Below are positions 5,101-43,645 of a stretch of DNA of 43,645 nucleotides, piece by piece (position 1 is the stretch's first letter; the number at the start of each line of letters is the position of its first letter). The stretch is from a virus, in IMG/VR virus record IMGVR_UViG_3300017971_000113, positions 1-43,645 of that record. One strand, given 5' to 3'. The notes under the pieces were generated by a model, which saw only the letters and a list, made by a program, of their open reading frames with translations, was not told the DNA's origin and did not search any database. The translations under genes and the position numbers were made by a program.

Positions 5101-5174
5101 TTAGAGAATTTCTTTCAAAAATACGAATATGGGGCACGGAGTATGATTTTGCTCAGTTAGTCGAGGTCACATAA
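2163..5174 (+). CDS. Tail tape measure protein
   Basis: 1003 aa, Ala/Gly-rich N-terminal helical core (FGQTTAEAVNSAAEFRKASFE...) and a long coiled-coil C-terminal half. Canonical position after the G/GT chaperones. Confidence 0.9.
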   Translation: MADTEKIIKIIFEGVNNVSGVVSDMRTAFVDNIQKPLAAISDSVIDLDKKLALLAAGGLAYSFHEAVKLESAVVGLDKVLSEQEQKLLPNLVSRMEEFGGAFGQTTAEAVNSAAEFRKASFELEASAHLAELASKLVIGASEANFQMGRSTETLISILKGFRVAEEDIVNESIHFADVFNKFADEYATTVGELTNGLTILAPISESLGFSFDEMAGFLIPVVEVFGSGSESANGLKTSLLSLADPTSELTKTLSAYGIELKKANGEQKNVKEILDELLPVYNGLSKAQQVQIASMIAGKDQAAKFTALLNGMETALNATAIAATEAGGSLDKELARGLGTAEVQIQRAIASFRDLAAQIGAQFKDAGKNTIEGATEINLALKSLVREGAFDDILNLVEDAGNELGDLLKEIAKNLPDAFEDVDFGGLVASLEEFKSVVLSTFDIDISTTEGLAEAIQLVVNAFESLVNVSTGIYDAFKPYIEGIIEAIQKSDELSAQSERTFGKIAGIAGLMGEIGVALGGVVTALNQAGISIEGIFDILAGSSKTVINFIQSIFDAFLKSILLIADKVLGLAELIDKINPFEGLSDKIKNARQSLDELSEANLYSFTQNIKEAASGATQALEGFDKKIVDTSDRIKKVPDEKRINLYWNQDTFDKALESAKKSIKEELPIDSTATLGVKVEGIDDAKESVIEITDTWGFLKKTISDTSPYDSLELFEDKLTSIDGEIDYLTSRKRQIEIDLLTGDGDEGLYKELLDIENKIEALTEEKIQVQIDMEPARREIAAATNDLKTMSDIIVKEIGGETYIEFIGEVNKDSIDKIEETKKKLSEDKEFLFKIESKELEEDTKRIEKQLDVFNDIATTKLKLDAEIDVEKIKAELRKFDTIVENTSDLIQGLSDSTNDLFGQFEQDLDLRSLWLLQEQIRQNIRIQREEFELQKKSIELQIEKQKLQNDLLRDPTKRAISCTIDQSFGPAFEWAVREFLSKIRIWGTEYDFAQLVEVT

Positions 5175-13344: not shown

Positions 13345-15111
13345 TTAAAATTTAATTTGTTTTAATTTTGAAAAAGAATTTATTATTAATTTTGTTTCTT
13401 TAATATAATAATCATAATCTAAATCATTTGGAAAATGTAAATCAAATAATGGGGCAGCGTTTACGGATTTCGGCACTCTGTTTCCATTTTTATATTCAAA
13501 ATTTCTGCCTTTTCCATCATAATACCATCTGCAAATTTTTCCAATCGATTCCCCATTAAAATACGCTCCTCCATTTACAGTCCTAATTGTTACAAATTTT
13601 GTTATATCCTTGCAATTTCTAATTTTTTCTTCAATCGGGGATTTATTTTTAAGATATTCTATTGCCGCTTCTACACAAATTTCATTAGTCGGATTTTTCA
13701 TAAAACCAGGTTTGGAATACAAGCCTTTTAGTTTTGTTTTACCGTCATCCGTGAATGCAATATAATTATTTACGTCTTTTTGATAAAATGCTCTGTAAAT
13801 CGTTTCCTCTGTATTAAATCCGGTATCTTTCTCCCATTGTTGGATGATTAAATTTATTTCTTCGTATCTATCCCTGGATTCATAAATCAAAATGCCATCA
13901 GTGTTGGCGCTTATTACATTTATTCCATTAAATCCCAAACGCTCGATCAACATCAGGAGCGCGAATTGTCCCGTTACTGTGACGTTTATAAATAGCTCTG
14001 GAGCATAAATATTTGAATAGATCGAATTTAATTTTCCAAAACATCCATTTATTGTAATTTTCAAACTATCGGCTGTTGATTTATCGCCTATTCTTTTTGC
14101 GTCAAGCCTTTTTTCAACAAGTCCCCTATATACATCAATAAATTTTTTCCCTAATTGAGGCGGGTATAAATCTCTGTTCAAAATGATCGATGGATAATAG
14201 CTCGCAACATCTCTATCGATCAATATTTTATTTTTATCTGATTTTATAGATCTGCTTTTTTCGATGCTGTGGAGTCCACCAATACCGGTAGAATAATGAT
14301 TTCCAAAAACTTGAACCGTATCGTTATTTTTTTCTTTAAAGAAACCAGGCAATCTAATTTTTCCATTATCGATTTCAAAATCAAATTCTTCAAATTGACA
14401 ACATAATATTTCTAAATCAAAATGTTTAAATTTCATCCATTCGGGCCGAATAAATTTTACTTTTTCAGGATGGTCAATCTTTTTTGATTTTATGCCGATT
14501 TCACTCAAAACAACGTTTTCAGCAATTTGAGCATCGGATTTAGATCGCAAATCAACGCCATATTGTTCAGATAAAGAAACTCTCAAATCAATTGCTTTTT
14601 TAAGTTTATTGAATAATTCATAAGTTATTTTACAATCATTTAAGCAATACTCCTTTAGTACGGAATATTGATTTTTTTCTATTACCGATTCAGGATCTAT
14701 TGGAAGTTCTTGTAATTTTGGATAATGCATTCGAGCAGCATATAATTTAAGTCCTGCGTGCCCGGGAGCCACTTCTTTTAAATCTATATGATTTAGTTCT
14801 AATTGAGGACAATCTTTTAAAATTTGCCAGTGCTTTTTCCCCTTTTTTATTATTTCATCCGATATCTTTTTTAAGTCTTCCAAAGAATTTCCGTGTATGA
14901 AAGCCTGAATGATCGGAATATCGTAATTTAAGCCGTTAAATGAAACAAAAAGCGTTTTTCGCATTTGTTCGTTTTTGAAAAATGCTTTAAGCTCATTCGG
15001 ATTATTTTTATCCTGTACGTATTCGAATATTCTTGTGTTTCTTCCATCATCGGGATCATAAAAAACCGCGAGAAAATAATTTATATAACATTCAATATCG
15101 AATACGTACAT
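13345..15111 (-). CDS. DNA polymerase, family B, with 3'-5' exonuclease domain
   Basis: Exonuclease motifs FDIE, FNGLNYD and YCLNDCKITYE. Polymerase motifs DVASYYPSII (DxxSLYPS), KITINGCFGK (KxxxNSxYG-like) and ANTDGI (DTDS-like). Confidence 0.85.
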   Translation of the reverse strand: MYVFDIECYINYFLAVFYDPDDGRNTRIFEYVQDKNNPNELKAFFKNEQMRKTLFVSFNGLNYDIPIIQAFIHGNSLEDLKKISDEIIKKGKKHWQILKDCPQLELNHIDLKEVAPGHAGLKLYAARMHYPKLQELPIDPESVIEKNQYSVLKEYCLNDCKITYELFNKLKKAIDLRVSLSEQYGVDLRSKSDAQIAENVVLSEIGIKSKKIDHPEKVKFIRPEWMKFKHFDLEILCCQFEEFDFEIDNGKIRLPGFFKEKNNDTVQVFGNHYSTGIGGLHSIEKSRSIKSDKNKILIDRDVASYYPSIILNRDLYPPQLGKKFIDVYRGLVEKRLDAKRIGDKSTADSLKITINGCFGKLNSIYSNIYAPELFINVTVTGQFALLMLIERLGFNGINVISANTDGILIYESRDRYEEINLIIQQWEKDTGFNTEETIYRAFYQKDVNNYIAFTDDGKTKLKGLYSKPGFMKNPTNEICVEAAIEYLKNKSPIEEKIRNCKDITKFVTIRTVNGGAYFNGESIGKICRWYYDGKGRNFEYKNGNRVPKSVNAAPLFDLHFPNDLDYDYYIKETKLIINSFSKLKQIKF

Positions 15112-17592: not shown

Positions 17593-19368
17593 ATGGCATC
17601 TAATAAATCAAAAGCAATGGAATTTTTGCAAATCACGGGAGCTTATCTTTTTCCATCCATATTCAAAGATGGGGAACATAAGCCGCTTATAAAATGGAAA
17701 CTAAACAGTTCAAATGATTACAGACAAATTGAAAAGTGGGCGGAAAAATGGCCTGATTGCTATTTTTGCGTGAATCTCAAAGCATCAAAAATGTCGGCAA
17801 TTGACATTGACGATAAAAATCAAAAAAACGGGTCATTAAAATTCAAAAATTTTCTATCCGAAAATAAATTAGAATTTCCGGAAACATTAACGATTAAAAC
17901 GCCAAGCGGCGGATATCATCATATTTACTCAGGATCTCACATATCAGGAAAACTGATAAAAGGGGCTGTGGATTTACCCGGAATGATTCCTGTTCCCGGA
18001 TCGATTGTTCCAGGGAAAGGGAAATATTCAATCGTGAACGGGCGGCATGAGCTTGAAAATATCCCGGAATGGTTAAAAGCTTTAGAAAAGCCAAAAATCG
18101 AAAAAAAGGAATATTCCGGCATATTGGATGATCCGGCAAATATCAATACTGCAAAACGTTTTCTTTTAGTATGCTCCCCGGCGATTGAAGGTCAAAACGG
18201 CGATATTACTACTTTTAAAACCGCCTGTAAACTAAAAGATTTGGGCTTATCCGAAGAAAAAACATGCGATTTAATGATTGAAATATTTAATCCTCGATGT
18301 TTACCGCCATGGAATATTCGAGATATTCGACTGAAAGTGAAAAATGCTTTCGAATATGGCGAATTGCCAATTGGAGTATCGGCTATCGGATTCGAAGAAA
18401 TTCAAAATGACTCCCCCCTGGAAAAAGAAAAAAAATCAAAAACCGGTTTTCAACTCATTCGAATAGGAGAACTTTTAGGAAAAATTGAAAAAATTGAATG
18501 GCTGATTGACGGTTTTTTTGAAAAAAAAAGCCTAAATATGATTTATGGGGAAAGTGGCGCGTATAAATCATTTTTAGCCGTTTCAATCGCGTGTAGTATC
18601 GCTTCAGGGACTAAATGGTATGGGCGAGATATAGAGCAAGGCCCGGTTGTTTATATCGCGGGAGAGGGACTTAGAGGCATTCCTAAACGAGTTCAAGCTT
18701 GGGCGGAAGAAAATTCAGTTAACGGAGCTGATATAGATATGTATTTGAGTAGTTCATCGGCTAATTTACTTGATCCTGAAAACGTGATGCAGATAAAAAA
18801 ATCAATTGCTGCTGTTAATCCGGTATTAATCATTTACGATACCCTGGCGCGAAATTTCGGCGGCGGCGATGAAAATAAAACAGCGGATATGGTGAAATTT
18901 ATAAATGAGGTCGATTCAGTCGGCGTTGAATCCGCTTCTTTATTAATACATCATACAGGATTGATGGAAAAAGATAGGGCGAGAGGAAGTAGCGCATTAA
19001 GAGCGGCCCTTGATTCTGAATTTCGCATGTCGTTTAATTCGCAGGCGGATAAAGAAAGCAACAAACCGCTTTTAATTTTGACAAATACGAAAATGAAAGA
19101 CTCGGAAAAAGTCGAAAATATTTATTTTGAAAAGCAGATTAGGATTTTAGATTTTGGAAATATAATAGAATCAGTAGTTTTGAAAAAAATTGACCAGGCA
19201 GATATAGACGATCAATTAAAAAATCTAATCATTGAAAATATGATGAACGGAATTTCGGATAGAAAATTATCCGAAAAATTCAATATGAACCGGCGAAAAA
19301 TCCGTAAAATTCGTGAAGACGCTATAACAAAAGGTTTTATTTCTGAAGATATCCATAAAGCCAAATAA
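17593..19368 (+). CDS. Bifunctional prim-pol primase / RepA-DnaB-like helicase with a C-terminal HTH-like tail
   Basis: Prim-pol motifs AIDIDD and SGGYHHIY, a PriCT-like middle region, Walker A GESGAYKS, Walker B LIIYDT, and C-terminal ISDRKLSEKFNMNRRKIRKI. Confidence 0.85.
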   Translation: MASNKSKAMEFLQITGAYLFPSIFKDGEHKPLIKWKLNSSNDYRQIEKWAEKWPDCYFCVNLKASKMSAIDIDDKNQKNGSLKFKNFLSENKLEFPETLTIKTPSGGYHHIYSGSHISGKLIKGAVDLPGMIPVPGSIVPGKGKYSIVNGRHELENIPEWLKALEKPKIEKKEYSGILDDPANINTAKRFLLVCSPAIEGQNGDITTFKTACKLKDLGLSEEKTCDLMIEIFNPRCLPPWNIRDIRLKVKNAFEYGELPIGVSAIGFEEIQNDSPLEKEKKSKTGFQLIRIGELLGKIEKIEWLIDGFFEKKSLNMIYGESGAYKSFLAVSIACSIASGTKWYGRDIEQGPVVYIAGEGLRGIPKRVQAWAEENSVNGADIDMYLSSSSANLLDPENVMQIKKSIAAVNPVLIIYDTLARNFGGGDENKTADMVKFINEVDSVGVESASLLIHHTGLMEKDRARGSSALRAALDSEFRMSFNSQADKESNKPLLILTNTKMKDSEKVENIYFEKQIRILDFGNIIESVVLKKIDQADIDDQLKNLIIENMMNGISDRKLSEKFNMNRRKIRKIREDAITKGFISEDIHKAK

Positions 19369-19925: not shown

Positions 19926-22202
19926 ATGGACACATACAAAGATTTTTTAAGAAATAAAAATAAAAAATTGCCGGATTTCGGATTTGATATAGATCTGAAT
20001 TCACTTAATCCTGCTCTATTCGACTGGCAAAAATACATTGTCAAATGGGCGATTAAAAAGGGAAGATGCGCGTTATTCGAGGATTGCGGGTTAGGTAAAA
20101 CAATACAATCACTTGAATGGGTCACAAAAATAATCGAAAATCCAGGAAGTCATGGATTGATAATAGCCCCCCTTGCTGTAAATCGTCAAACAAAAAAAAT
20201 AGGGGATGAGTTTGGATACGAAGTCAATATTTGCAGATCCGAAGATGATATAAAAAATGGAATAAACATATGCAATTACGAAATAATGCATAAATTCGAT
20301 TTTAAAACAAAAGAGTTTATTGTTCTTGATGAATCAAGCATCATAAAAAATGAGGCGAGTGTATATTTATCATTTTTGCTCGATAATATATCAAATATAA
20401 AATACAGATTGTGTTGCACTGCGACTCCAAGTCCGAATGATTACACAGAACTTGGAAATCATGCTGAAATATTAGGTGTATGTACACGCGGCGAAATGCT
20501 CGGAAATTATTTTTACCACGATTCCGGCAATACATCAAAATGGACTTTGATGGAATGGTCAAAAAAAGATTTCTGGGATTGGCTTGCCGATTGGTCAGTC
20601 ATGATAAAAAAACCATCAGACATAGGTTTTTCTGATGATAATTTTAAACTTCCAAAATTAATTTATCATGAACATATAATAAAAACAGATATTAGAGACT
20701 ATGAATTGTTTAGGGAAGAAGTCAAAAGCCTTTCGGATAGAAGGGATGAAAGAAATAAAACGCTTGAAAAAAGAACAGATTGTGCCAAATCATTGATAAA
20801 AGAAGATGAAAAATGGGTTTTTTGGTGTAATTTTAATCCTGAAAGTGAAATGTTATCTAAAAAAATAGACGGATCAATCGAGCTTAAAGGCCCACAGAAA
20901 GCAGAATATAAAGCGAATGTGATGAATGATTTTGCAAACGGGAAAATAGACGTTTTAATCACAAAGCCGAGAATATCAGGATTTGGGATGAATTTCCAAA
21001 TATGCAATAACACTTGTTTCACAATACCATCGGATTCATATGAAGAATGGTATCAGTCGATACGAAGGTTTTGGAGATTCGGAGCAAAAGAAGATGTCAA
21101 CGTTCATATGATAATAACAGATAGAGAAAATCCCATAATAGAAAATTTAAAAGAAAAAATGAGGAAAAACGAAGAAATGGCTATCGAAATGGTTAAAGCG
21201 ATGTCAGAAAAAACAAAAATAGAATTAGGCATTAGCGGCAAAATTATTGTTAGCGATTATAAAGAAAAAATCGTAAAAGGCGAAAATTGGACAGCGTATT
21301 ATGGGGATTGCGTCGAAATATCTTCAAAACAACCTGACAATAAATATGATTTTTGTATTTATAGCCCCCCGTTTGCTGAAATTTATAGATATAGCGATAG
21401 CGAGAGGGATATGGGCAACTCGAAATCATATCATGAATTTTTCGAACATTACAATTTCTTAGTAAAAGAGCAATTTAGAACTCTGAAGCCTGGAAGACTT
21501 GCGGCGATCCATTGCATGAATATACCCGCAATGAAAGAGCGCGATGGATATATAGGAATAAAAAATTTTAGGGATGATATAATAAGAATACATCAAAAAA
21601 ACGGATTCATATATCATTCAGAGATCGTAATACCAAAAGATCCATTAATCGAAAGCCAAAGAACACGTGCTAAAGGATTGGCTCATAAAAACGTTATAAA
21701 AGATTCGGCTTGCTTGAGACAAGCCCTGCCTGATTATTTATGTGTTTTTTATAAACCTGGTAAAAATGAAATTCCAATATCACATCCAGATGGCTTCACA
21801 AAATATATAGGGATTGAATGCGAAAATCCAGGTGGAAAATATGATGAAGAACATTCAAAAAATAGAAAATCACAATATTTGTTTAGAAGGTATGCCGAAT
21901 CTGTTTGGTGGGATATCAGACAAACAAAAACTTTAAAATGTAAAAACGCTAAAGACGATAAAGATGTCAAGCATCCTTGCCCGCTACAATTGGACGTAAT
22001 CGAAAGAGCGATTTATTTATGGTCAAACAAGGATGATTTGATCGTATCGTGGTTTGGAGGAATAGGCTCTGAGGGTTATGTGGCTATATCAAACGATAGA
22101 CGATGTGAAATAGTGGAATTAAAAGAATCTTATTACAACGAACTCATAAAAAATCTTGAAAGGGCAGAAAAAGCACATAAACAACTTGAATTACCAATGT
22201 GA
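19926..22202 (+). CDS. SNF2-family helicase fused to a beta-class DNA (N6-adenine or N4-cytosine) methyltransferase
   Basis: Helicase motifs DCGLGKT, VLDESS, CCTATPSPN and ISGFGMNFQ. The C-terminal half has IYSPPF (motif IV) then HPCPLQ...WFGGIGSEG (motif I). Confidence 0.8.
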   Translation: MDTYKDFLRNKNKKLPDFGFDIDLNSLNPALFDWQKYIVKWAIKKGRCALFEDCGLGKTIQSLEWVTKIIENPGSHGLIIAPLAVNRQTKKIGDEFGYEVNICRSEDDIKNGINICNYEIMHKFDFKTKEFIVLDESSIIKNEASVYLSFLLDNISNIKYRLCCTATPSPNDYTELGNHAEILGVCTRGEMLGNYFYHDSGNTSKWTLMEWSKKDFWDWLADWSVMIKKPSDIGFSDDNFKLPKLIYHEHIIKTDIRDYELFREEVKSLSDRRDERNKTLEKRTDCAKSLIKEDEKWVFWCNFNPESEMLSKKIDGSIELKGPQKAEYKANVMNDFANGKIDVLITKPRISGFGMNFQICNNTCFTIPSDSYEEWYQSIRRFWRFGAKEDVNVHMIITDRENPIIENLKEKMRKNEEMAIEMVKAMSEKTKIELGISGKIIVSDYKEKIVKGENWTAYYGDCVEISSKQPDNKYDFCIYSPPFAEIYRYSDSERDMGNSKSYHEFFEHYNFLVKEQFRTLKPGRLAAIHCMNIPAMKERDGYIGIKNFRDDIIRIHQKNGFIYHSEIVIPKDPLIESQRTRAKGLAHKNVIKDSACLRQALPDYLCVFYKPGKNEIPISHPDGFTKYIGIECENPGGKYDEEHSKNRKSQYLFRRYAESVWWDIRQTKTLKCKNAKDDKDVKHPCPLQLDVIERAIYLWSNKDDLIVSWFGGIGSEGYVAISNDRRCEIVELKESYYNELIKNLERAEKAHKQLELPM

Positions 22203-26142: not shown

Positions 26143-26520
26143 ATGAAAAAAATATTGTGGTTTTCAAGACATTCTCTTACAAAAGAGCAACTAAACGATT
26201 TGAACTGTTTGTTTTCGGAAGAATTAAATATCAGACAAATAGATAAAACGATAAATAGCGTTGTTGAAATAAAAGAAGATCTTGATTGGTGCGACGTTGC
26301 GATTGTTGTTATGCCAATTGAGATGCAAAAAGAAACTCTTATGCTGCTTGGCGGGAAAATCATGATGATATCACGCAATCATAGAATATTGCAGTCCGAC
26401 GGATCATATAAATTTGTACATGCCGGTTTTGATAGAATCGAAAGAATTGAAATAGTAAAATATAAATTGACTGATCATCTGGAACCAAAAGGGGCTTTTA
26501 GGGGAGCAAACGATGAATGA
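26143..26520 (+). CDS. Hypothetical protein (125 aa) following the RHH gene
   Basis: Track ORF 13 nt after the RHH stop; overlaps the MazG start. Confidence 0.55.
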   Translation: MKKILWFSRHSLTKEQLNDLNCLFSEELNIRQIDKTINSVVEIKEDLDWCDVAIVVMPIEMQKETLMLLGGKIMMISRNHRILQSDGSYKFVHAGFDRIERIEIVKYKLTDHLEPKGAFRGANDE

Positions 26521-26884
26521 TTTTGAATGGATAGAAAACCAAATTATAAAGTGGGGCAAAGATAAAGATCTTATCGGAGAAAAAGGAAATTCCAAAAGAC
26601 AGGTTGAAAAAACATTTGAAGAATTGAACGAACTCGGCGACGCTCTTTATTTTGAAAATACAGATGACGCCATTGACGCTTATGGGGATATAATTGTAAC
26701 AATCATAATTGGTTACGCTCAATTTTGTTTTGAAAAAAATATCAATCATTCGAGAATTATAGATGCTGTTAATTCGGCGTATGAAGAAATAAAAGATAGA
26801 AGCGGATTTACATTAAACGGAACATTTATAAAGGATTCTTTGCATGCCGCCTATAAAATGACGTTTCCGATCACGTCGGGTTAG
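26513..26884 (+). CDS. MazG-like all-alpha nucleotide pyrophosphohydrolase
   Basis: EKTFEELNELGDA ... DAIDAYGDIIVTIIIG matches the EExxE...D metal-binding helices typical of phage MazG. Confidence 0.65.
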   Translation: MNDFEWIENQIIKWGKDKDLIGEKGNSKRQVEKTFEELNELGDALYFENTDDAIDAYGDIIVTIIIGYAQFCFEKNINHSRIIDAVNSAYEEIKDRSGFTLNGTFIKDSLHAAYKMTFPITSG

Positions 26885-26927: not shown

Positions 26928-27263
26928 TTGCAAAGGACTTTTAAGATGAAGTGTAAATATTCGTTGGTGAGTATCGTGGAAAAAGAAAATTCCGAAAGGC
27001 AGGTTGAAAAAATATCTGAAAAATTGAACGAACTCGGCGACGCTCTTTATTTTGAAAGGTTGGATGACGCGCTTGATGCTTATGGGGACATATTAGCCAC
27101 AATAATCATTGGTTGCGTGCAAAGGACTTTTAAGATGAAATGTAAATATTGTAAATATTCGATACCTTCTGATATCCCCGGACACATAAAATGCGTGTAT
27201 AAAGGGAAGAATGAAAAAGATGATTTTTGGTGTATGAGATTTGAAAGAAAAATAAAGAAATAA
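26928..27263 (+). CDS. Chimeric ORF: truncated MazG-core duplicate fused to a Cys-rich C-terminal peptide
   Basis: Residues EKENSERQVEKISEKLNELGDALYFERLDDALDAYGDILATIIIG copy the MazG core. QRTFKMKCKY occurs twice. Internal ATGs with AAAGGA RBSs at 26946 and 27135. Confidence 0.5.
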   Translation: MQRTFKMKCKYSLVSIVEKENSERQVEKISEKLNELGDALYFERLDDALDAYGDILATIIIGCVQRTFKMKCKYCKYSIPSDIPGHIKCVYKGKNEKDDFWCMRFERKIKK

Positions 27264-28728: not shown

Positions 28729-28923
28729 ATGGGCGATTATGTTAAATGCATAAAAGCAGGATCGACAATAGATTGTTGGTCTTGCTATCATTCAAGAGAT
28801 CATGAAAAAATAAAATATGATTCATTGGATGCGAAGTTTTGCTCTCAATGGCAAGACTGCAATGATGGAATAAATAGCAATGGGAAAGTTAGGTGCATCA
28901 AGACAGCAAAGAAGAAAATATAA
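28729..28923 (+). CDS. Small Cys-rich protein, first gene of the ParB/radical-SAM operon
   Basis: 64 aa with 7 Cys (CIKAGSTIDCWSC ... C ... C ... C). Its stop overlaps the next ATG (TAATG). Confidence 0.5.
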   Translation: MGDYVKCIKAGSTIDCWSCYHSRDHEKIKYDSLDAKFCSQWQDCNDGINSNGKVRCIKTAKKKI

Positions 28924-29639
28924 TGAAGATAAAATGCAAGTACGATAAGCTGGTTAAAATATCGGAATTGACAACACTTAAACATCCTCGAAATTATAAT
29001 CAGCACGGAACAGAACAAATAGAGCTATATGCCGAAATAATAAAAGATCAAGGTATAAGAAGACCAATAAGAATATCTAATTTTTCTGGATTTATTACGG
29101 CCGGTCACGGTCTTTTGAAAGCTGCCGAAAAATTAGACTATAATGAGTTACCGGTTGAATATCAGGATTATGACTCAGAAGAGCAAGAGCTTGCTGATAT
29201 TTTGGCGGATAATAATCTTGCTCGACTCGCTACAGTGAATCGTCAAAAGCGGGATTCAATAATCCATGAACTTGTTGAAAAAGGCGTTGACCCAAAAATA
29301 ACCGGAATTTCAAAAGTAATCATGGACGATATTCTCGGAAACGTTCAAAAAATTGATCTTACAGCTTCTGAATTTTTCAATAACCGAGAAGGCTTTATTG
29401 ACGACGAATCATCCGATCTGGATGAATTTGAATCGCAAGATATGATGGATATGTCATCAGGAAAAATAAGAGAACTCGAAAATAGTAAAAAGCGGCCAAT
29501 TGCAATTGTACTCGATAGAAGCCAGTATGAAAAATGGGAATCGTTAAAAAAGACAAAATTTAAAGTTAAGGGTGATACATTAGCGATTCTTAAAATTATT
29601 GAATATTTTGAAACTTTGTTGGAGGAGGATAAAAAATGA
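28923..29639 (+). CDS. ParB-like nuclease domain protein
   Basis: ATG 28923 (the track uses GTG 28893). N-terminal ParB/Srx-fold pattern ISELTTLKHPRNYNQH..IELYAEIIKDQGIRRPIRIS..GFITAGHGLLKAAEKL, with an acidic middle region. Confidence 0.6.
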   Translation: MKIKCKYDKLVKISELTTLKHPRNYNQHGTEQIELYAEIIKDQGIRRPIRISNFSGFITAGHGLLKAAEKLDYNELPVEYQDYDSEEQELADILADNNLARLATVNRQKRDSIIHELVEKGVDPKITGISKVIMDDILGNVQKIDLTASEFFNNREGFIDDESSDLDEFESQDMMDMSSGKIRELENSKKRPIAIVLDRSQYEKWESLKKTKFKVKGDTLAILKIIEYFETLLEEDKK

Positions 29640-30862
29640 TAGTACCGTTTTGGGGCGAATTGTTATTCCATAAAATTCCGTTAGAATTGAGTTTTAACCC
29701 TTGCTCTCATGGATGCGCTTATTGCTTTAATATTCTGAACGGAATGAATAAACACTGCGATATGGCGCCGTTAACAAAACTGTTGACTGATTTCAACAAC
29801 AGAGAAACGTTTGTTGCCAAATTACTCAAAAAAGGATATCCGGTCTTGATGTCAAACCGATCGGACCCATTCGCAAGGAGTAATTATGAGCAGGCTTTAT
29901 CAATCATTAAATTGATGAGTGAAGTCGGAATTCCAATGGCGTTTCAGACAAAAGGCGGATATGGAATAGATGAAGCGCTTGACATGTTGGATAAGCCAAC
30001 ATGTTGGTATATAACAATTACACATAGCTCTGATCAAACTCGTAAGATTTTTGAACGTAACGCCCCGGATATTGATAGTCGTTTCACATTATGTGAAAAA
30101 TTAAGATCAAAAGGACATCGAGTACAAGTCGGAATAAATCCTATGGTGAGGGAATGGTTGGGTTATAATAAACAGCTTGCATCTTTTATTGAACGATTAA
30201 AGAATTCAGGCGTGGAAGGCATATGGGCCGAAAAGATTCATTTTAATCGAAAACAGATTAAAAATATATCGCCAAAAGTCAAGATTGCTTTTGGAGATAT
30301 CATAAACGAAGGCTTAAAAAACCCGTCCCCAGAATTAACAGAATATATCGATACTCTTCAATCTATGATTAAAGATTCAGGTATTGTTTTCGGATCATCC
30401 TATAATTGGAATACAAAATATTGGGATGTTTTTGACGAAACATACGATACGCTTTTTCCGAATACGATTGATTTTATCAGACATTGTTTTAATTCATTGG
30501 AAGACGATACTGTAATCGCTTACTCATACTTCAAGCGCCATATAGTTGACAAATTCCCCAAAGGGCGATACAATATAAAGAATTATATACTAAATAAGGG
30601 ATTTCGGATGAATAAAAAATACGCTTTAAAATCTCAAATGACCTTTGATGAGATTATGCGTATAATGTGGTTTGATCCGAAAGCGGGTAAAATGGGGATA
30701 GGCGTAAAAGAATGGTTCGCCGTTTATGGTTGCGAGATAACTAAAGATGGATTTCTTAAAAAACCTGTCTGCGAGGATTACGGAATGCCTTATTATATGT
30801 TCAGGCGCTCTGAGTTTAACTCAAGTGTCGTTGATTTATATGGAAAGGAGGTACTATTATGA
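29636..30862 (+). CDS. Radical SAM enzyme, SplB-like (COG1533 'DNA repair photolyase' type)
   Basis: CSHGCAYC is a CxxxCxxC motif in an NP-C-x-HGC-x-YC context. Downstream NRSDPF, FQTKGG, ITITHS and VGINPMV match the SplB-like TIM-barrel strand pattern. Confidence 0.7.
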   Translation: MIVPFWGELLFHKIPLELSFNPCSHGCAYCFNILNGMNKHCDMAPLTKLLTDFNNRETFVAKLLKKGYPVLMSNRSDPFARSNYEQALSIIKLMSEVGIPMAFQTKGGYGIDEALDMLDKPTCWYITITHSSDQTRKIFERNAPDIDSRFTLCEKLRSKGHRVQVGINPMVREWLGYNKQLASFIERLKNSGVEGIWAEKIHFNRKQIKNISPKVKIAFGDIINEGLKNPSPELTEYIDTLQSMIKDSGIVFGSSYNWNTKYWDVFDETYDTLFPNTIDFIRHCFNSLEDDTVIAYSYFKRHIVDKFPKGRYNIKNYILNKGFRMNKKYALKSQMTFDEIMRIMWFDPKAGKMGIGVKEWFAVYGCEITKDGFLKKPVCEDYGMPYYMFRRSEFNSSVVDLYGKEVLL

Positions 30863-31014
30863 TTGATTTTGGAATTAGAATTCAAAAATCGAATCTTACA
30901 AAAGACGCGGTATTTAATACTGTGACGTCGGAATCAGGAAGAAGTACGAAGACGACCGTAACTTATGTTCCTAAAGATGGCGGATTTCCAAGAACTATCA
31001 CAATAAAACGGTAA
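30859..31014 (+). CDS. Hypothetical 51-aa protein coupled to the radical-SAM gene
   Basis: ATGA overlap with the upstream stop. Hand-translated product MIDFGIRIQKSNLTKDAVFNTVTSESGRSTKTTVTYVPKDGGFPRTITIKR. Confidence 0.45.
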   Translation: MIDFGIRIQKSNLTKDAVFNTVTSESGRSTKTTVTYVPKDGGFPRTITIKR

Positions 31015-31076
31015 ATTTAAAATAACGGTGTATCCTTATGGTTACGCCGTTTCTCGGAATAACCTCTTGATAAATA

Positions 31077-31649
31077 ATGAACCCGCAATGTAAAGCAAAA
31101 AGCAAACGCACAGGGAACCGTTGCCAACGCCCCGCCATGAACGGAAAAAAAGTATGCTACTATCATGGCGGCAAGTCTCCAGGCGCTCCAAAAAAAAATA
31201 AAAACGCTTTCAAACATAGTTTTTACTCTCAATTATATGTCGGAGATGATCAAGAAAAAGTTCAAGCTTTGTCGGTAGAACTTGCATCCGGCGATCATTT
31301 GGAGTTATTGAAAAGTCATCTTGTTTCTGCAATATCAAATCACGCGAAAATGATAGTTGCCCAAAGAACTTATTATGAAGAAAGAGAAAAAGTAAAAGCC
31401 AATGGGCTGGATATGGAAACACTTTCTAAGAACGGAGAGGATGCTGACGGGAATAAATATGTGACGCTGCATCGATTGAGAGATTTTTCAAATGAATTGC
31501 ACGCCGCGCAAAATCAAGTGCTTAAAATTGTAAAAGAAATACACGCCATAAAGATGGATTTAGGATTAGATAAAGATACGGAAAAAATAATCTTTGATTT
31601 GAAGTTCAATTTTGACGAAGAAAAAGAAAGCGAGCCCGGGCTGGATTAG
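31077..31649 (+). CDS. HGGxSTG-like Cys/His N-terminal motif protein; possible small terminase or DNA-binding protein
   Basis: CKAKSKRTGNRCQRPAMNGKKVCYYHGGKSPGAPKKNKNAFKHSFYS followed by a helical C-terminus. The TerS role is inferred only from motif recollection and proximity to TerL. Confidence 0.35.
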   Translation: MNPQCKAKSKRTGNRCQRPAMNGKKVCYYHGGKSPGAPKKNKNAFKHSFYSQLYVGDDQEKVQALSVELASGDHLELLKSHLVSAISNHAKMIVAQRTYYEEREKVKANGLDMETLSKNGEDADGNKYVTLHRLRDFSNELHAAQNQVLKIVKEIHAIKMDLGLDKDTEKIIFDLKFNFDEEKESEPGLD

Positions 31650-31667: not shown

Positions 31668-31853
31668 TCAATTATTTTGTTTGGTCATGTTAAACGTACA
31701 TCTTTTTGGGATTTTCTTTGTTTTATTGCAGTCATCGCATTCAAAGAGATAATGATTTTTTTGCGTCCCTATATATTTTAAACGCTTTCCGCATTCACAA
31801 ATCATTTTTATGTTTTCAATTTCCATTTTTACACCCATACTTCTTACAAACAC
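31668..31853 (-). CDS. Small zinc-ribbon protein
   Basis: CECGKRL...FECDDCNK; the start is probably an internal ATG. Confidence 0.5.
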   Translation of the reverse strand: MFVRSMGVKMEIENIKMICECGKRLKYIGTQKNHYLFECDDCNKTKKIPKRCTFNMTKQNN

Positions 31854-31861
31854 AATTGAGA

Positions 31862-32323
31862 TTAAGGTGTCCAGATAACGCCTCTTTCCGATTTCGATAT
31901 TTCCGATGCAATTCCAGCCAGATTTTCATTACAAAAGATCAGCAACAAAATTCCTTTATGGCCGTCTCTCCGCAACAATGACTTTAAAAAGGACACTCGT
32001 TCCGTCGCTTGCCATTTATCATAAAAATGTTCGGCATTGACAACCACGGTTGTTTTTTGTTCCGCCGACTCGACTATTTCAGTTTGAATTTGCCGCCAGA
32101 CTATGAAATCACTCAATTTGCCCGCATATCTGTTTTCCATATCTATCATTCGGGCGTCCATCAATTCGACAAATTCCATCATATCATTTTCATTATAGGA
32201 TTTTGGATTAGACGGCGCGATAATCAAAACCGGATATCGCTCAGGGCAGCTTCTCCACTTTTCCATCAATTTTTGAGTTTTTAATTCCATTTGTGTCTCG
32301 TATTTTGTATTACTTTTTTTCAT
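31862..32323 (-). CDS. Hypothetical protein (153 aa)
   Basis: Strong RBS GGAGGAGG upstream on the minus strand. Confidence 0.55.
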   Translation of the reverse strand: MKKSNTKYETQMELKTQKLMEKWRSCPERYPVLIIAPSNPKSYNENDMMEFVELMDARMIDMENRYAGKLSDFIVWRQIQTEIVESAEQKTTVVVNAEHFYDKWQATERVSFLKSLLRRDGHKGILLLIFCNENLAGIASEISKSERGVIWTP

Positions 32324-32404
32324 TTATTCCTCCTCCCTCTTCTAACGCCGAATTAAGCGGCAGGGGCGTAATGTTGCCCCCAAGCCTTTCATTTTTGGTT
32401 TTTT

Positions 32405-32608
32405 TTAAAATTCCAACGAGATCATTTGATCTCGTTCGCAATATTCGCATTTTGCTACGAGATCATTTATTTTTACGCCAATTATTTTTTTTGAAATGGC
32501 TTCAATTATATCGCCGATTTCATCATATGCGAGCGGCGAATATTTCCGCCCGCAATGTTCGCATTCGCAATTTATATCTATTTTTATATCTGCTATTTGC
32601 ATTTTCAT
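32405..32608 (-). CDS. Small zinc-ribbon protein (67 aa from the ATG preceded by AGGAGA)
   Basis: MKMQIADIKIDINCECEHCG...AKCEYCERD. The track ORF extends to 32659, but the RBS supports 32608. Confidence 0.55.
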   Translation of the reverse strand: MKMQIADIKIDINCECEHCGRKYSPLAYDEIGDIIEAISKKIIGVKINDLVAKCEYCERDQMISLEF

Positions 32609-32613
32609 ATCTC

Positions 32614-32985
32614 CTATAATTTCATAAATTTCATTAACTGTTCTGGCGAATTTGAACAAAATTCGTCAATATAATATTTTCCGTTTTCCCGTTTTATCTT
32701 AAATCCATGCGCCGCCGCATAAATGCGGCATTTTGAAAGCGTTATTTTTTTTTCAATTTTTAATGCCTTTGCCGCGTTTTTACGTTCACATAGCCGTTTT
32801 TTAGATATTTCAATAAAACGATATCCATATGAATCGATATCGTTTTTTAATAACGAATCGGCTATCAAATTCAAACTAAGCCATTTTTTGAATTTGAAAT
32901 CAAAACGCAAGCCCTCTAATTCATTATCGAATATGTATGAATATTCGATATTTTTTTCGAATATGTTTATTGCTGTTATTTTCAT
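32614..32985 (-). CDS. Hypothetical protein (123 aa)
   Basis: Track ORF abutting 32986..33318. Confidence 0.5.
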   Translation of the reverse strand: MKITAINIFEKNIEYSYIFDNELEGLRFDFKFKKWLSLNLIADSLLKNDIDSYGYRFIEISKKRLCERKNAAKALKIEKKITLSKCRIYAAAHGFKIKRENGKYYIDEFCSNSPEQLMKFMKL

Positions 32986-33318
32986 TTATTTCGATTCTTC
33001 CTCTATATATTCTATCATTTCTTTTAATGAGAGGCCATGGGGCTCTCTAACATCATCCGCCGAGGCCTCAAGCTTATGAGATCTGCCGATTTTCATTTTC
33101 CTATATGATCCGTCTATTCCCATATATGTTTTTTCGAATTTAGAAATTTTGCCATCATATTTTTGTGGCGAAATTTCGCAATTTTTAAAATCCCATATCG
33201 ATTCAATCTCGAAATATTTTGAAGATCTGAATCGATATTCATATCTGTTTTTATCAATTGCCCGATATATCGGGCAATTCCGATGTGAAATATATCTGTC
33301 AATTATTTGTACTATCAC
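32986..33318 (-). CDS. Hypothetical protein (110 aa)
   Basis: GTG start preceded by AAGGAGGG. Confidence 0.5.
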   Translation of the reverse strand: MIVQIIDRYISHRNCPIYRAIDKNRYEYRFRSSKYFEIESIWDFKNCEISPQKYDGKISKFEKTYMGIDGSYRKMKIGRSHKLEASADDVREPHGLSLKEMIEYIEEESK

Positions 33319-34058: not shown

Positions 34059-35459
34059 ATGGTTTATATATTAAATATGATTAATAAAATAATCAGATAT
34101 AGGCCGTCAAAAACTATGAGCGAATTTCATAAATGCCGATCACTCGCTAAAGGATTGCGCGGCCCAATAGGATCTGGAAAATCATCCGCTTGTTGCATAG
34201 AATTGTTTTCAAATGCTGTCGAGCAAGAGCCGTTCAACGGAATCCGTAAAACAAAAATGGGAATAATCAGAAATACATACGGGGAACTAAAAACAACTAC
34301 GATCAAAACATGGCTGAATTGGTTTGGTGATTTGACAAGAATTGTTTATTCCTCTCCAATTATAGGCATTATGAATTTTGATTTACCTGACGGAACAAAA
34401 GTTGAATGCGAGCTGGTATTCGTATCGCAAGATCGACCAAAAGATATCGCCCGCCTGTTATCGCTGGAATTGACGGCCGCCTGGATAAATGAAGCGAGAG
34501 AAGTTCCGGAAACGGCGCTTGATGTTACTGGAAGAATAGACAGATATCCGGATTTCAAAAAAGAAGTTGGAGCAACTTATCCTGTTTTGTTGATGGACAC
34601 TAATTCATGCGATGTTTCGTGTTGGTATCACACATATTCTGAAAAATTAAAGCCCGAAGGATATACATTTTTTGATCAACCGGGCGCTTTAATTCGAACA
34701 ACCTACGATAAAGAAATATCTTATGCGCCAAATCCTGAAGCAGAGAACATAGAAAATTTAAAATCAGGATATGATTATTATTTACGTCAAATTCCAGGGA
34801 AATACATGGAATGGGTGGAAGTTTACGTCCTAAATATGTATGGATCAGGATCACCGGGGAACAGAATTTATCATAATTATTCGCCATTAAATCATACCGA
34901 AAAAGAATTTGATCCTGGATTGCCGATTCATTGGACGAATGATTTCAATTTTGCCCCATTATCATCTGCGATAATACAGATTGATAAAGATGAAAATATA
35001 TATTGTGTTGACGAGATTATAATATATCATGCAGATCCGTTGCAATCTGCTATTGAATTTGCGGATAGATATAAAGACAATAAAAATCTATCGATACATA
35101 TTTACGGCGATGCATCAGGCCATGTCGGACAAAAGCACGGCCAAATATCAAATTACATAAAAATAAGAAAATATCTTGAAGAGCAAGGATTTATAATTAA
35201 GATGCATGTTCCGCGTTCTAATCCCGGGATTAGGGACGGCCAGAATGCGGTACGAGCTAAAATATCTGATGCTGCGGGGCGTCGTTCTTTTTTTGTAAAT
35301 CAAAAAAAATGCCCGACTATCGATGAAGGGCTTATGACGTTGCAAACAAAAAAAGGATCGACGTTTTTGGAAGATGAACGGCTTGATAGTCAGCATGTTT
35401 TATCTGCCGTGAGATATTTTGTTTATCAGAAATTTCCGTTAAAATTTAAATTAAAATAA
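34059..35459 (+). CDS. terL: Terminase large subunit
   Basis: Walker A LRGPIGSGKS, Walker B-like LTAAWINEARE, and C-terminal nuclease-type acidic motifs (WTNDFNF, IHIYGDASG). Followed by the portal gene. Confidence 0.85.
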   Translation: MVYILNMINKIIRYRPSKTMSEFHKCRSLAKGLRGPIGSGKSSACCIELFSNAVEQEPFNGIRKTKMGIIRNTYGELKTTTIKTWLNWFGDLTRIVYSSPIIGIMNFDLPDGTKVECELVFVSQDRPKDIARLLSLELTAAWINEAREVPETALDVTGRIDRYPDFKKEVGATYPVLLMDTNSCDVSCWYHTYSEKLKPEGYTFFDQPGALIRTTYDKEISYAPNPEAENIENLKSGYDYYLRQIPGKYMEWVEVYVLNMYGSGSPGNRIYHNYSPLNHTEKEFDPGLPIHWTNDFNFAPLSSAIIQIDKDENIYCVDEIIIYHADPLQSAIEFADRYKDNKNLSIHIYGDASGHVGQKHGQISNYIKIRKYLEEQGFIIKMHVPRSNPGIRDGQNAVRAKISDAAGRRSFFVNQKKCPTIDEGLMTLQTKKGSTFLEDERLDSQHVLSAVRYFVYQKFPLKFKLK

Positions 35460-35473: not shown

Positions 35474-36880
35474 ATGACTGAAATGACAATTGAGGAATTA
35501 AAATCAACAGACGATAGATATAAGGCGAATGCGGCAAATTGGAGATTCAATCAAAGCGCGTATAAAGGCTACGAATCTCTTATTAAGGATGAGGGAATAT
35601 TAAGATATGACGCCGATAAAAGAGATAGCGAGGATATAGAATATAGGGAAATGGCGGCATGGGGGGATGATCTTTCAGCGTGGACAGTTGAGCTATTTGC
35701 TGATTTTGTCGGTTCAGTTCCATTTATGGAAGATTTTTCGCCGTTAGTTGATGATTGGGCGTTTGAGCGTTTTATGCGAGATTGTGACATGGATGAAACT
35801 GATTGGGGAGTATTTTGGGATAATGCGAGACGAGCGGCATATACGACCGGCATGCAAGGCATTCTTGTTGATAAAGGAAAATCAACTGGAAATGTAGCAA
35901 TGGATAAGGAAAGAGGCGTTTATCCGTATCTCGTTTCATTTAGTCCTTTGGCGATATTGAAAACAGAGCGCAAAAGAGATGAATACTCTAATAGACCATA
36001 TCTATCATATCTTAAATATGTTGAATCTGACGGAACATATAAGATATGGACTACGGAAGAATGGAAAGCGTATAAAATAATAGATGAGGAAGTCGTTTTA
36101 ATTGATGCTGGAGAAAATCAAATTGGAGAAATTCCGTTTTTTTGGTTTTATAATCTGAAATCATTGGAAGACAAATATTTAGGAAAATCAGAGATTCAGG
36201 GTATATCTGGTATTGATGCATCAATTATTAGTGAAACCGCCGATGTGGCCCAAGTTTTCCGAGCTGCCGGATTTCTTATGCTTGCCAGGCCTTCATCCGC
36301 TATTCGGGAAGATCAGGATTTAGAAGTCGGCCCAAATGTTCAAATCGCTTTTGACGCCGATAATCCCGGCGGAACAAGGCCGTTTTGGTTAACTCCTGAT
36401 GTTCAAGGGCCGGTTAATGCGGCCATGACTATAATAGAAAAGCAGGAAATGGCGGCAATGCGAAAAAAGAATTTATCTTCTGTATTCGCAACAATGGCGA
36501 AAGATGCTCGTTCAGCCGAATCGATATCCCAGGCTTTTAGATTTCTTGAAAGTTCATTGAATAGAAAAGTAAATAACGAGCTTGAAGCGAGGAATAAAGC
36601 GATTTTATACTGGCTAAAATGGCAAAATCAGTCAGATTTATATAACGGTATATCCATAACTCATCCGAGATCATATAATATTCAAAGTCTTATTTTAACT
36701 ATACAAGATGCCATGACTGCAAAAACAGTTGTAAAATCATCGGATCGTTTTCAAAAATATATAGATAAAATGATTGTAAAAAAAGTATCACCAGACATTT
36801 CACAATTGGAGTATAAAGAAATTGCGGATGAAATAGATTCGGCCGAAATAATAAAACCTGATGCCCAAATAGAAACATAG
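35474..36880 (+). CDS. Portal protein
   Basis: 468 aa, immediately downstream of TerL. Call is by size and position. Confidence 0.7.
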   Translation: MTEMTIEELKSTDDRYKANAANWRFNQSAYKGYESLIKDEGILRYDADKRDSEDIEYREMAAWGDDLSAWTVELFADFVGSVPFMEDFSPLVDDWAFERFMRDCDMDETDWGVFWDNARRAAYTTGMQGILVDKGKSTGNVAMDKERGVYPYLVSFSPLAILKTERKRDEYSNRPYLSYLKYVESDGTYKIWTTEEWKAYKIIDEEVVLIDAGENQIGEIPFFWFYNLKSLEDKYLGKSEIQGISGIDASIISETADVAQVFRAAGFLMLARPSSAIREDQDLEVGPNVQIAFDADNPGGTRPFWLTPDVQGPVNAAMTIIEKQEMAAMRKKNLSSVFATMAKDARSAESISQAFRFLESSLNRKVNNELEARNKAILYWLKWQNQSDLYNGISITHPRSYNIQSLILTIQDAMTAKTVVKSSDRFQKYIDKMIVKKVSPDISQLEYKEIADEIDSAEIIKPDAQIET

Positions 36881-40433: not shown

Positions 40434-41588
40434 ATGGCAAATGTACTAACCGATCTCTCACAGACTTATATCATGCCCCAAGCGCTTCAAGTTCTGCGTG
40501 AAAATTGCGTAATGCCCGCGCTAATCAATCAAGATTACAAAAACGAAGCGAAGATGAGAAATCAAACAATTCGTGTGCAACTACCACAAGATATGTCCAC
40601 CGCGAATGATTTTAATCCTGCTGCGGGATCAAGTTCAACTGATCTCGATGACCCGTATGTAGATATCACTCTTTCAAATTGGAAATACAAACAATTTGAA
40701 ATGTCGGACAAGGAAATGTTCGATTCCGTTTCCAACGGGGTTCTTCCGTCAGCAATGGATGCCGCGATTAAATCAATTGCAAATGCGATTGATTTGAGCA
40801 TTTTGAATTTATATAAAGAATTTAAATATTGGTATGGGGTTCCAGGAACAACGCCGGATGAATCGGCGGATATTATTGGCGTAAGACAAAAGCTACAAGA
40901 AAATCTTGCTCCACAAGGAGATAGAAGGCTCGTGATGGATACAAACGCCGAAGCAAAGTTTCTTGATCTTTATGAAAAAGCAAATGAGACGGGCACGACG
41001 GAAGCGCTAAGAAATGCTTCACTCGGCCGATTGTTCGGCCTCGACACGTACATCGATCAATTGATCCCTAAACATACGTCAGGCACGCTTACAGCAGCGA
41101 ATGATATTGCAGCTAAAGCTATTTATGCTATCGGAACGACCGCAATTACTCTTGATGATTCAGGAGGAGGGGCTTTAACGGAAACACTTGTTCAAGGTGA
41201 TAAGATTACATTCGCTGGTGATTCCACAATTTATACTGTGACTGCTGACGCTACCGCCGCCGCAAACGAAATTGCGATCACAATTTTTCCGGGACTTGCT
41301 GTCGCAACTGCGGATGGTACAGTTGCCACTGTTTCAGATTCTGGATGGGTGCCGAATCTTTGTTTCCATAGGGATGCCATGTGTCTTGCCATGCGGCCTT
41401 TGCAGGATGCCGATGAAATGACATCTGAAAGCTCAACTATTGTTGTCCAAACTGATCCCGTTTCCGGAATCCCGTTAAGAATGGAAACTTGGAGAAGTCC
41501 GTCTTATTCAACAAGATATTGGAAATTTGATGTGTTGTATGGCGTAAAGTTGCTAAGACCGGAACTTTGCGCGATTCTTTTCGGATAA
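40434..41588 (+). CDS. Major capsid protein
   Basis: 384 aa, after the scaffold gene. The N-terminal region (TYIMPQALQVLRENCVMPALINQDY...IRVQLP) recalls P22-coat-like/HK97-fold capsid proteins. Confidence 0.75.
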   Translation: MANVLTDLSQTYIMPQALQVLRENCVMPALINQDYKNEAKMRNQTIRVQLPQDMSTANDFNPAAGSSSTDLDDPYVDITLSNWKYKQFEMSDKEMFDSVSNGVLPSAMDAAIKSIANAIDLSILNLYKEFKYWYGVPGTTPDESADIIGVRQKLQENLAPQGDRRLVMDTNAEAKFLDLYEKANETGTTEALRNASLGRLFGLDTYIDQLIPKHTSGTLTAANDIAAKAIYAIGTTAITLDDSGGGALTETLVQGDKITFAGDSTIYTVTADATAAANEIAITIFPGLAVATADGTVATVSDSGWVPNLCFHRDAMCLAMRPLQDADEMTSESSTIVVQTDPVSGIPLRMETWRSPSYSTRYWKFDVLYGVKLLRPELCAILFG

Positions 41589-43498: not shown

Positions 43499-43645
43499 AT
43501 GGCTACAAGTTCAAATGCAATGATAAAAATCGAAACGTCTTCGACTGCGTACACTGCCGCTCAAATGACAGACCAAGGCGCACATGATGTATTTAAAATC
43601 ACTGACGTTGATGAGTTTTCCGGTGACCCGGATATTGAAGTACAC
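43499..43645 (+). CDS. 5' end of the major tail protein candidate (continues at base 1)
   Basis: ATG 43499 preceded by AAGGAAAAAAAA. MATSSNAMIKIETSS... runs off the window in the same frame as 1..996. Confidence 0.6.
   Translation, partial: MATSSNAMIKIETSSTAYTAAQMTDQGAHDVFKITDVDEFSGDPDIEVH
43523..43645. repeat. Terminal direct repeat, copy 2
   Basis: Identical to 1-123. Confidence 0.9.

Follow-up and report, generated by a model that had tools for sequence, protein, structure and literature searches.

A ParB-like protein paired with a radical-SAM enzyme of the spore photoproduct lyase clade: a candidate DNA-directed cassette of environmental phages

The IMG/VR virus record IMGVR_UViG_3300017971_000113 was analysed over its whole length of 43,645 nucleotides (hereafter the window), with the focus on four overlapping open reading frames (ORFs) at positions 28,729 to 31,014. 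The functional unit of this region is a two-gene cassette, in which a gene for a protein of the ParB/sulfiredoxin (Srx) fold is translationally coupled to a gene for a radical S-adenosylmethionine (SAM) enzyme of the spore photoproduct lyase (SPL)/COG1533 clade. We tentatively propose, at somewhat less than an even chance, that the cassette encodes a two-subunit, DNA-directed radical-SAM system that acts late in infection, with DNA modification as the favoured activity. The pair is conserved and no description of a ParB–radical-SAM cassette was found in the literature, which together support the idea in the initial annotation of an undescribed DNA-directed module.

A conserved pair of genes beside the packaging module

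All four ORFs lie on the plus strand. The first (28729..28923) encodes a Cys-rich protein of 64 aa with six cysteines and one CxxC; the second (28923..29639) encodes the ParB/Srx-fold protein, core subunit 1, with 238 aa from its ATG or 248 aa from an alternative GTG start at 28893; the third (29636..30862) encodes the 408-aa radical-SAM enzyme, core subunit 2 and the catalytic one; and the fourth (30859..31014) is a 51-aa ORF coupled to the radical-SAM gene. The initial annotation had placed these ORFs and three stop/start overlaps at the same positions, and the overlaps were verified in the sequence (TAATG at 28921-28925, ATGA at 29636-29639, and ATGA at 30859-30862), so that translational coupling is borne out at all three junctions. 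Strong Shine-Dalgarno sites precede the third ORF (GGAGGAGG) and the fourth (AAGGAGGT); those before the first and the second are weak.

The neighbourhood of the radical-SAM gene was compared across 168 loci, comprising the window, 3 contigs carrying protein homologues, 27 IMG/VR contigs, 18 contigs of species-representative genomes, and 119 metagenome contigs. The latter two sets were found with a back-translated two-motif DNA pattern that had been validated on known loci, and all metagenome pattern matches (119/119) are true members of the radical-SAM family; some contigs are shared between the collections, and most are short. Unbiased clustering of the ORFs within 4 kb in 49 loci identified the ParB-like family as the sole general partner of the radical-SAM gene, present in 38 of the 49; the two genes share a strand in every case, and their median overlap is 4 nt. 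The ParB-like gene lies no more than 800 nt upstream of the radical-SAM gene in 34 of the 42 evaluable loci of this first set. Among the 119 metagenome loci, 100 were evaluable, and the ParB-like gene is adjacent in 56, elsewhere in the locus in 35 (mostly 200-800 nt upstream and nearly all on the same strand), and not found in 9. Overall, a ParB/Srx-fold gene stands near the radical-SAM gene on the same strand in about 90% of the evaluable loci among the 168, in most cases with a 4-nt overlap, and the co-occurrence of the two genes is thus strongly supported. The order is reversed in two loci (L007 and L013), which read TerL-rSAM-ParB_N-portal, and the ORFs that are occasionally inserted between the two genes are unrelated to one another. 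At L017 and L027, the immediate vicinity of the radical-SAM gene revealed no small ParB gene; about 4 kb upstream, these loci encode a protein of 664 aa (13-2007) whose N-terminal domain is ParB-like.

As initially described, the four ORFs formed a single system of four proteins made in stoichiometric amounts, as the overlapping codons at three junctions would suggest; moreover, the 51-aa ORF is kept in one close relative of the window (L002), in which a 52-aa ORF at the same position shares 40% identity with it. However, no search revealed a relative of the Cys-rich ORF: it forms a singleton cluster, without homologues in IMG/VR or among the ORFs of the 168 loci, and it has no Pfam, PHROG, NCBIfam, or PADLOC match. 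The 51-aa ORF has no relative among the 168 loci besides that in L002 and is absent from 166 of them, and neighbour clustering of both the 49-locus and the 168-locus sets revealed no third gene family accompanying the pair, terminase excepted. The neighbourhood analysis therefore largely refutes the four-protein system, to which we give hardly any credence, since only the two middle genes are conserved together across loci. The Cys-rich ORF is a lineage-specific rider outside the conserved cassette, and the 51-aa ORF is probably a real gene restricted to the closest relatives; both are local additions that stand outside the system.

The large terminase subunit (TerL) gene is the second commonest neighbour, at least 27 of the 49 loci having it no more than about 3 kb away; clusters of TerL type, taken together, are found at about 58 of the 168 loci, most contigs being short. 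Three unrelated terminase types, i.e., gpA, T4-type, and Terminase_3, are found beside the cassette, which recurs at the edge of, or within, the packaging module. This place beside the terminase and portal genes was not part of the initial annotation. In the window, a hairpin with a 9-bp stem (31024..31051, plus strand) lies between the cassette and the terminase small subunit (TerS) gene. The stem-loop (31024-31032 / 31043-31051) had been noted after the operon and is confirmed as significantly stable, with a folding energy of -19.2 kcal/mol for a 76-nt stretch, a z-score of -3.4, and none of 200 shuffled sequences as stable. Its identity as a canonical intrinsic terminator was rejected, as it contains no T-run and the terminator scan made no call on it; Rfam gave no match to the hairpin and zero matches across the window.

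The constant TerS/TerL/portal neighbourhood, which includes insertion between TerL and portal, and the position of the hairpin between the cassette and the TerS gene in the window could be taken to mean that the pair serves packaging itself, marking or processing DNA for the terminase, for example through recognition of the start site or through radical making or protecting of ends. Nevertheless, the terminases found with the cassette belong to at least three unrelated types that differ in packaging strategy; the cassette is missing from nearly all cultured phages and hence is not needed for packaging in general; and at some loci its transcription runs divergently from that of the terminase genes. 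A packaging function is therefore very improbable in our estimation.

Kinship and predicted folds of the two proteins

The 408-aa protein carries the radical-SAM motif FNPCSHGCAYCF. In an alignment of 68 diverse members of its family, the cluster cysteines C23-x3-C27-x2-C30 are invariant, and the CxxxCxxC triad thus survives proper alignment; S73, N74, D77, R149, and P169 are likewise invariant, and F31, directly after the third cluster Cys, is a nearly invariant Phe. The alignment contains no conserved Cys outside the cluster, and neither a SPASM/twitch domain nor auxiliary-cluster cysteines. A profile search of 1.84 billion representatives returned 1737 relatives, 300 of them at E<1e-30, the family representatives being clustered at 50% identity; nearly all are about 400 aa long, matching the full length of the protein, which includes a family-specific C-terminal extension of about 150 aa.

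The COG1533-type models expected from the initial annotation are indeed the best NCBIfam matches of the protein (Rv2578c, E 2.7e-8; PA0069, E 6e-5), but their cut-offs are far from reached (33.2 vs 430 bits and 22.2 vs 360 bits, respectively), and the PF04055 score of 24.9 bits is under the Pfam cut-off of 29.5. Several homologues have a precomputed PF04055 match. The best PHROG match is phrog_13321, which is labelled ‘unknown function’ (E 1.2e-13); no defence-system model in PADLOC and no SPL model in NCBIfam (at E<=1) matches the protein. Among PDB chains, no real match by sequence was obtained with either the single protein or the 68-sequence profile. The AlphaFold2 model (pLDDT 88.9, pTM 0.88) has the radical-SAM fold, and a Foldseek search with this model gave 73 PDB matches at E<=1e-3, the best 50 of which are all radical-SAM enzymes. 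The list is headed by SkfB, PFL-AE, and SPL, with SuiB and viperins also among the top E-values; among the PDB matches, the query-normalised TM-score is highest for the SPL entry 4fhc (0.44, rmsd 4.3 Å).

Whether the protein is ‘SplB-like’ beyond generic radical-SAM similarity was tested by aligning the family profile with three proteins using hhalign. The profile matched gp53 of phage M6 with 98.2% probability (E 5e-14, 191 columns) and the PA0069-type radical-SAM protein of Dulem virus 36 with 98.0% (E 3e-13), whereas E. coli PflA, a structural top match that served as the negative control, reached only 3.7% (E 0.012). This contrast places the family, and with it the protein of the window, specifically within the SPL/COG1533 clade, and the SplB/COG1533-like assignment made at the outset is borne out by the same comparisons.

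Two longer family members, P0064 (759 aa) and P0091 (708 aa), were considered as ParB–radical-SAM fusions and rejected, as both contain inteins of about 340 aa with a homing-endonuclease-like middle. The intein of P0064 lies within CxxxCxxC, just before the third Cys (CSHSCAF/C...HN/CFANIN, with slashes at the junctions). P0091 is without the N-terminal radical-SAM part, and its readable C-terminal junction (SSN/CFANLN) marks the same intein site. Actinobacterial COG1533 genes are known intein hosts (PMC4760082).

The ParB-like protein consists of a ParB_N-like domain (residues ~1-120), an acidic disordered linker (residues ~121-193), and a conserved C-terminal motif of about 45 aa, P-[IL]-A-I-V-L...W...K...G...D (residues ~190-232). 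The window protein has no Pfam match, and PF02195 is matched by 11 of the 28 members of its family. Its PHROG matches are phrog_498, the N-domain of a DNA methyltransferase family (E 2e-23), and phrog_620, which is ParB-like (E 1.4e-19), and the N-terminal region of PADLOC MTase_II also matches it (E 4.3e-11). The AlphaFold2 model, built on a 6-sequence alignment, is of moderate quality, with an overall pLDDT of 62, values of 70-89 in the N-domain, and low confidence in the C-terminal region. The best 50 Foldseek matches of this model are all ParB, Noc, KorB, PadC, serine kinase, SbnI, Srx, or related hypothetical proteins, and about 92-98 residues align with Myxococcus xanthus ParB at an rmsd of about 3 Å. 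The N-domain is thus predicted to have the ParB/Srx fold, and the ParB-fold assignment of the initial annotation is upheld by both the PHROG families and the ParB/Noc/KorB/Srx matches in Foldseek. A ribbon-helix-helix identity was considered for the C-terminus but gained no support, since a profile of 18 C-terminal segments had no such match in PDB or Pfam.

Most members of the ParB-like family have GHGRL as box II; the window protein and its close relatives have GHGLL instead, and a further subgroup has GN(K/G)x. The conserved Arg of this box (GxxR / GHxR), which functions in NTP binding or catalysis, is therefore missing in the window protein. Since this residue is variable or lost, neither NTPase nor nuclease chemistry can be the conserved role of the ParB-like protein, and the earlier label ‘nuclease’ is not justified.

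These results bear on the possibility that the substrate is not DNA. The radical-SAM enzyme might modify a protein or peptide (of the virion, of the packaging machinery, or the small ORF), a nucleotide, or RNA, with the ParB/Srx partner as an NTP-using accessory enzyme like sulfiredoxin or the serine kinase. The presence of two peptide maturases (SkfB and SuiB), an activase (PFL-AE), and viperins at the top of the Foldseek list would fit such a role, as would the serine kinase and sulfiredoxin among the ParB/Srx-fold matches, the embedding of the cassette among virion and packaging genes, and the coupling of the 51-aa ORF to the cassette in the window. However, the profile affinity is specific to the DNA-acting clade (98% vs 3.7% for PFL-AE), the SPASM/twitch domain and auxiliary-cluster cysteines are absent, the small ORF is not conserved, and the ParB domain groups with the N-domains of DNA methyltransferases, its catalytic Arg being dispensable. 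We consider a non-DNA substrate improbable.

Comparison with known systems and the proposed function

DNA is the known substrate of only two radical-SAM enzymes, both in the SPL/COG1533 clade: spore photoproduct lyase and M6 gp53, an SPL-like enzyme that isomerises N-alpha-glycinylthymine in polymeric DNA during hypermodification (PMC8989533). Like M6 gp53, the radical-SAM protein of the window is a phage-encoded, SPL-like enzyme; the two have a homologous core and share CxxGCA[FY]C, S-x-x-DPF, G[IL]P, PGA, and NPxVP. However, M6 gp53 has an N-terminal extension of about 115 aa, its C-terminal region is not alignable with that of the window family, and no ParB-like partner is adjacent to it among the genes listed; a direct BLASTP comparison of the window family with M6 gp53 is marginal (E 2e-4). 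M6 gp53 acts on DNA after replication, within a 5-hydroxymethyldeoxyuridine (5-hmdU) pathway that also comprises a base kinase, an amino-acid:DNA transferase, and a pyridoxal phosphate (PLP)-dependent decarboxylase. PHROG scans of the window ORFs detected no 5-hmdU kinase, amino-acid:DNA transferase, PLP decarboxylase, or dUMP hydroxymethylase, and an M6-type hypermodification pathway was rejected for the window, which contains no homologues of the pathway partners. The M6 gene gp054 (NC_007809; L050, 16686-17249) is named ‘terminase small subunit’ in RefSeq; experiments have established it as the 5-hmdU DNA kinase (PMC8989533), and this misannotation could mislead neighbourhood comparisons. 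The TerS of the window is unrelated to this kinase (gp54) in a direct comparison.

The likeness to SplB (PDB 4fhc) lies in the radical-SAM fold and the CxxxCxYC context, and it makes a DNA substrate plausible. In SPL, the motif CMGHCHYC begins at residue 90 (PMC8989533). SplB has C140 and Tyr98, whereas the window family is without a conserved fourth Cys and has Phe in the Tyr98 position; the window family also has the extra C-terminal region of about 150 aa and an obligatory ParB-like partner. In SPL, to which the mutant entries in PDB refer, C140 returns the hydrogen atom and Tyr98 takes part in the radical relay; a Y98F mutant of SPL is among the PDB matches. With the catalytic Cys and the relay Tyr absent, the enzyme was rejected as an SPL orthologue, and the UV repair by an SPL mechanism suggested in the initial annotation is disfavoured.

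The PA0069/Rv2578c proteins (COG1533, ‘DNA repair photolyase’) provide the best NCBIfam matches, and the window family is longer than these and forms its own group. Cellular COG1533 genes are chromosomal and under LexA/SOS regulation (PMC3381160, PMC8565304), in contrast to the place of the window family in the phage packaging module. A repair function, in which the radical-SAM enzyme would reverse a UV- or radical-induced lesion as SPL does and the ParB-like subunit would scan or hold the DNA, to the benefit of phages in light-exposed hosts, draws on this regulation and on the membership of SPL in the same clade, with the best query-normalised TM-score among the PDB matches. It would also be consistent with the filamentous cyanobacteria among the carriers, one Leptolyngbyaceae metagenome-assembled genome (MAG) having 8 copies, and with a stand-alone pair, as no co-substrate pathway is required. 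Nonetheless, the hydrogen-return relay of SPL is absent, since no Cys is conserved beyond the cluster and Phe occupies the Tyr98 position, and no SPL-specific model matches at E<=1. Furthermore, the cassette lies in or beside the late packaging module rather than among the early genes expected for repair of the incoming genome, the hosts also include Bacteroidales, and the sources also include fermenter, sludge, and bioreactor samples. On balance, repair is an unlikely function, and modification is more likely than repair.

Dulem virus 36 (L051, PP511521.1) encodes at 1804-3744 a ParB protein, followed by a 190-aa ORF and a 261-aa PA0069-type radical-SAM protein; the 190-aa ORF is methyltransferase-like by reading of its motifs VLDCFHGKG and DLDAFGSP. 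This set is a shorter sister version of the cassette, and its arrangement indicates that the theme of ParB plus radical-SAM extends beyond the window family. The N-domain most like that of the window ParB-like protein is found in phage DNA methyltransferases with ParB_N (phrog_498; PADLOC MTase_II, PDLC03229). Both have a ParB_N domain joined to a SAM-using enzyme; however, the window has a separate, translationally coupled radical-SAM partner and a C-terminal motif of about 45 aa in the ParB-like protein instead of a fused methyltransferase domain. ParB_N-methyltransferases tend to be encoded near terminase genes. A ParB-superfamily protein encoded beside a DNA-modifying enzyme is also seen in DndB with DndACDE and in IbrB with the PAPS-reductase-like IbrA. 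The partner enzymes of DndB and IbrB are PP-loop ATPases, unrelated to radical-SAM enzymes. Whether the ParB-superfamily partners act as regulators, NTPases, or nucleases is debated (PMC10853773).

For the favoured late-acting, DNA-directed system, we postulate that the ParB-like and radical-SAM products form a complex, and that the ParB-like subunit would bring the radical-SAM subunit to double-stranded DNA, in the way proposed for the homologous ParB_N domain of the ParB-methyltransferase fusions. The radical-SAM subunit would then reductively cleave SAM, and the resulting 5'-deoxyadenosyl radical would abstract a hydrogen from a DNA base or sugar. This reaction may take place at a late stage of infection, with replicated phage DNA that awaits packaging as its substrate, and would result in a covalent post-replicative modification that shields the genome in the next host. 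Such a protective modification is the most likely outcome, although we place it slightly below the balance of probability. It is favoured because the nearest characterised phage relative, M6 gp53, is a DNA hypermodification enzyme; because the ParB domain is of the kind that is fused to phage DNA methyltransferases; because Dulem virus 36 and L041 have methyltransferase genes within or next to the cassette, that of L041 being a Dam methyltransferase gene directly upstream; and because late expression would fit modification before packaging.

Several points weigh against this proposal. Searching the window by tblastn with M6 gp51, gp52, gp54, gp55, and gp58 gave nothing below E 0.38, and in the absence of these pathway partners, the modification would have to be made on canonical DNA; to our knowledge, there is no precedent for a radical-SAM enzyme that modifies canonical DNA. 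The SOS regulation of cellular COG1533 genes points to repair, and a hot spot for accessory genes could be enough to explain the place beside the terminase. Judged from the alignments, the window protein and a large subgroup have lost the box II Arg, and an NTP-dependent clamp or nuclease role cannot be general. In addition, the C-terminal domain of the ParB-like protein matched no DNA-binding family in PDB or Pfam, and both the physical complex of the pair and its binding to DNA are inferred. A more specific proposal is that the cassette is a widespread and hitherto unrecognised way to alter canonical DNA by radical chemistry, through a new base or sugar modification just before packaging without a nucleotide-level precursor pathway, or through radical-based modification of strands or ends; this we regard as doubtful.

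Distribution, genome context, and significance

The radical-SAM family is almost absent from cultured phages. Neither blastn nor tblastn searches of GenBank phages with the window region gave a match, and the family member P0008 gave one, to Dulem virus 36, with 25% identity. The family is also rare in genomes, with 19 pattern matches across 185,579 species-representative genomes, mostly in MAG contigs and filamentous cyanobacteria. The phages and prophage-like elements that carry it are assigned to Cyanobacteria, Bacteroidota, Chlorobiota, Acidobacteriota, Chloroflexota, and Alphaproteobacteria. The eight ParB–radical-SAM copies of the Leptolyngbyaceae MAG CBDHHL01 lie on eight contigs (L031, L034, L036, L038, L040, L045, L046, and L048), and those examined (L031, L036, L038, L045, and L046) stand beside terminase genes of at least two types, transcribed divergently. 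These copies suggest many prophage-like or gene transfer agent-like elements in one genome. The cassette is also present in three cultured cyanobacteria, i.e., Oculatella sp. LEGE 06141, Nodosilinea sp. FACHB-131, and Floridaenema evergladense BLCC-F167. The ParB protein and the ORF after it in an IMG/VR contig (L004) are 100% identical to those of the Oculatella locus (L039); directly downstream of its radical-SAM gene, L004 encodes an ADP-ribosyltransferase (7204-7857; PF03496, E 1.4e-14, and PF01129).

The source genome is that of a tailed phage of about 43.5 kb with 35.4% GC and no tRNA genes, and an exact 123-bp terminal direct repeat (1-123 and 43523-43645) indicates that it is a complete circular assembly. 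Proteins of this phage are also present in three public sources (JGI/IMG, Logan, and ENA). Profile scans of the window ORFs identified a tape measure protein (2163-5174), a family A DNA polymerase (13345-15111, minus strand), a primase/helicase (17593-19368), and a major head protein (40434-41588). A 758-aa fusion of an SNF2-type helicase and a DNA methyltransferase is encoded at 19926-22202 on the plus strand (phrog_16/62, phrog_67/498, and several PADLOC MTase_II models), and the phage therefore already has one conventional DNA methyltransferase. About 1.5 kb upstream of the cassette are two adjacent plus-strand ORFs that match MazG-like nucleotide pyrophosphatases, one a clear match (26513-26884, E 9.6e-22) and one a weak match (26928-27263, E 6.5e-4); such enzymes can reshape dNTP pools.

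The TerS gene (31077-31649, plus strand) follows the end of the cassette after a gap of 62 nt. Its product matches the NCBIfam HGGxSTG domain (37.8 bits vs a cut-off of 29), as well as TerS_not_xtmA (E 2.9e-9) and PHROG small-terminase families; in L002, the ORF that follows the cassette encodes a homologue. Small ORFs on the reverse strand form a block (31668-33318) in the 2.4 kb between the TerS gene and the TerL gene (34059-35459, plus strand; phrog_2, E 8.9e-14), after which comes the portal gene (35474-36880; phrog_145, E 2.8e-28). Two ORFs of this block, at 31668-31853 and 32405-32659, are rich in CxxC and zinc-finger-like; the four scanned ORFs of the block (the ORF at 31668-31853 being outside the scan) had no PHROG match.

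The large size of this radical-SAM family (at least 300 clusters at E<1e-30) stands against merely two radical-SAM enzymes known to act on DNA. Together with the place beside packaging genes, the near-obligatory ParB-like partner leads to a testable hypothesis of a new DNA-directed radical enzyme system, and the three cultured cyanobacteria that carry the cassette make experiments feasible. There is a real chance that the combination of a DNA-acting, SPL-clade radical-SAM enzyme with a ParB-type partner carries out new chemistry. If the system is involved in repair, it would show how environmental phages cope with DNA damage. If the cassette instead writes a modification, it would extend the anti-restriction chemistry of phages by a new class and could provide a tool enzyme, and a writer on canonical bases would be the first radical-SAM DNA ‘writer’ of this kind and a new anti-restriction strategy.

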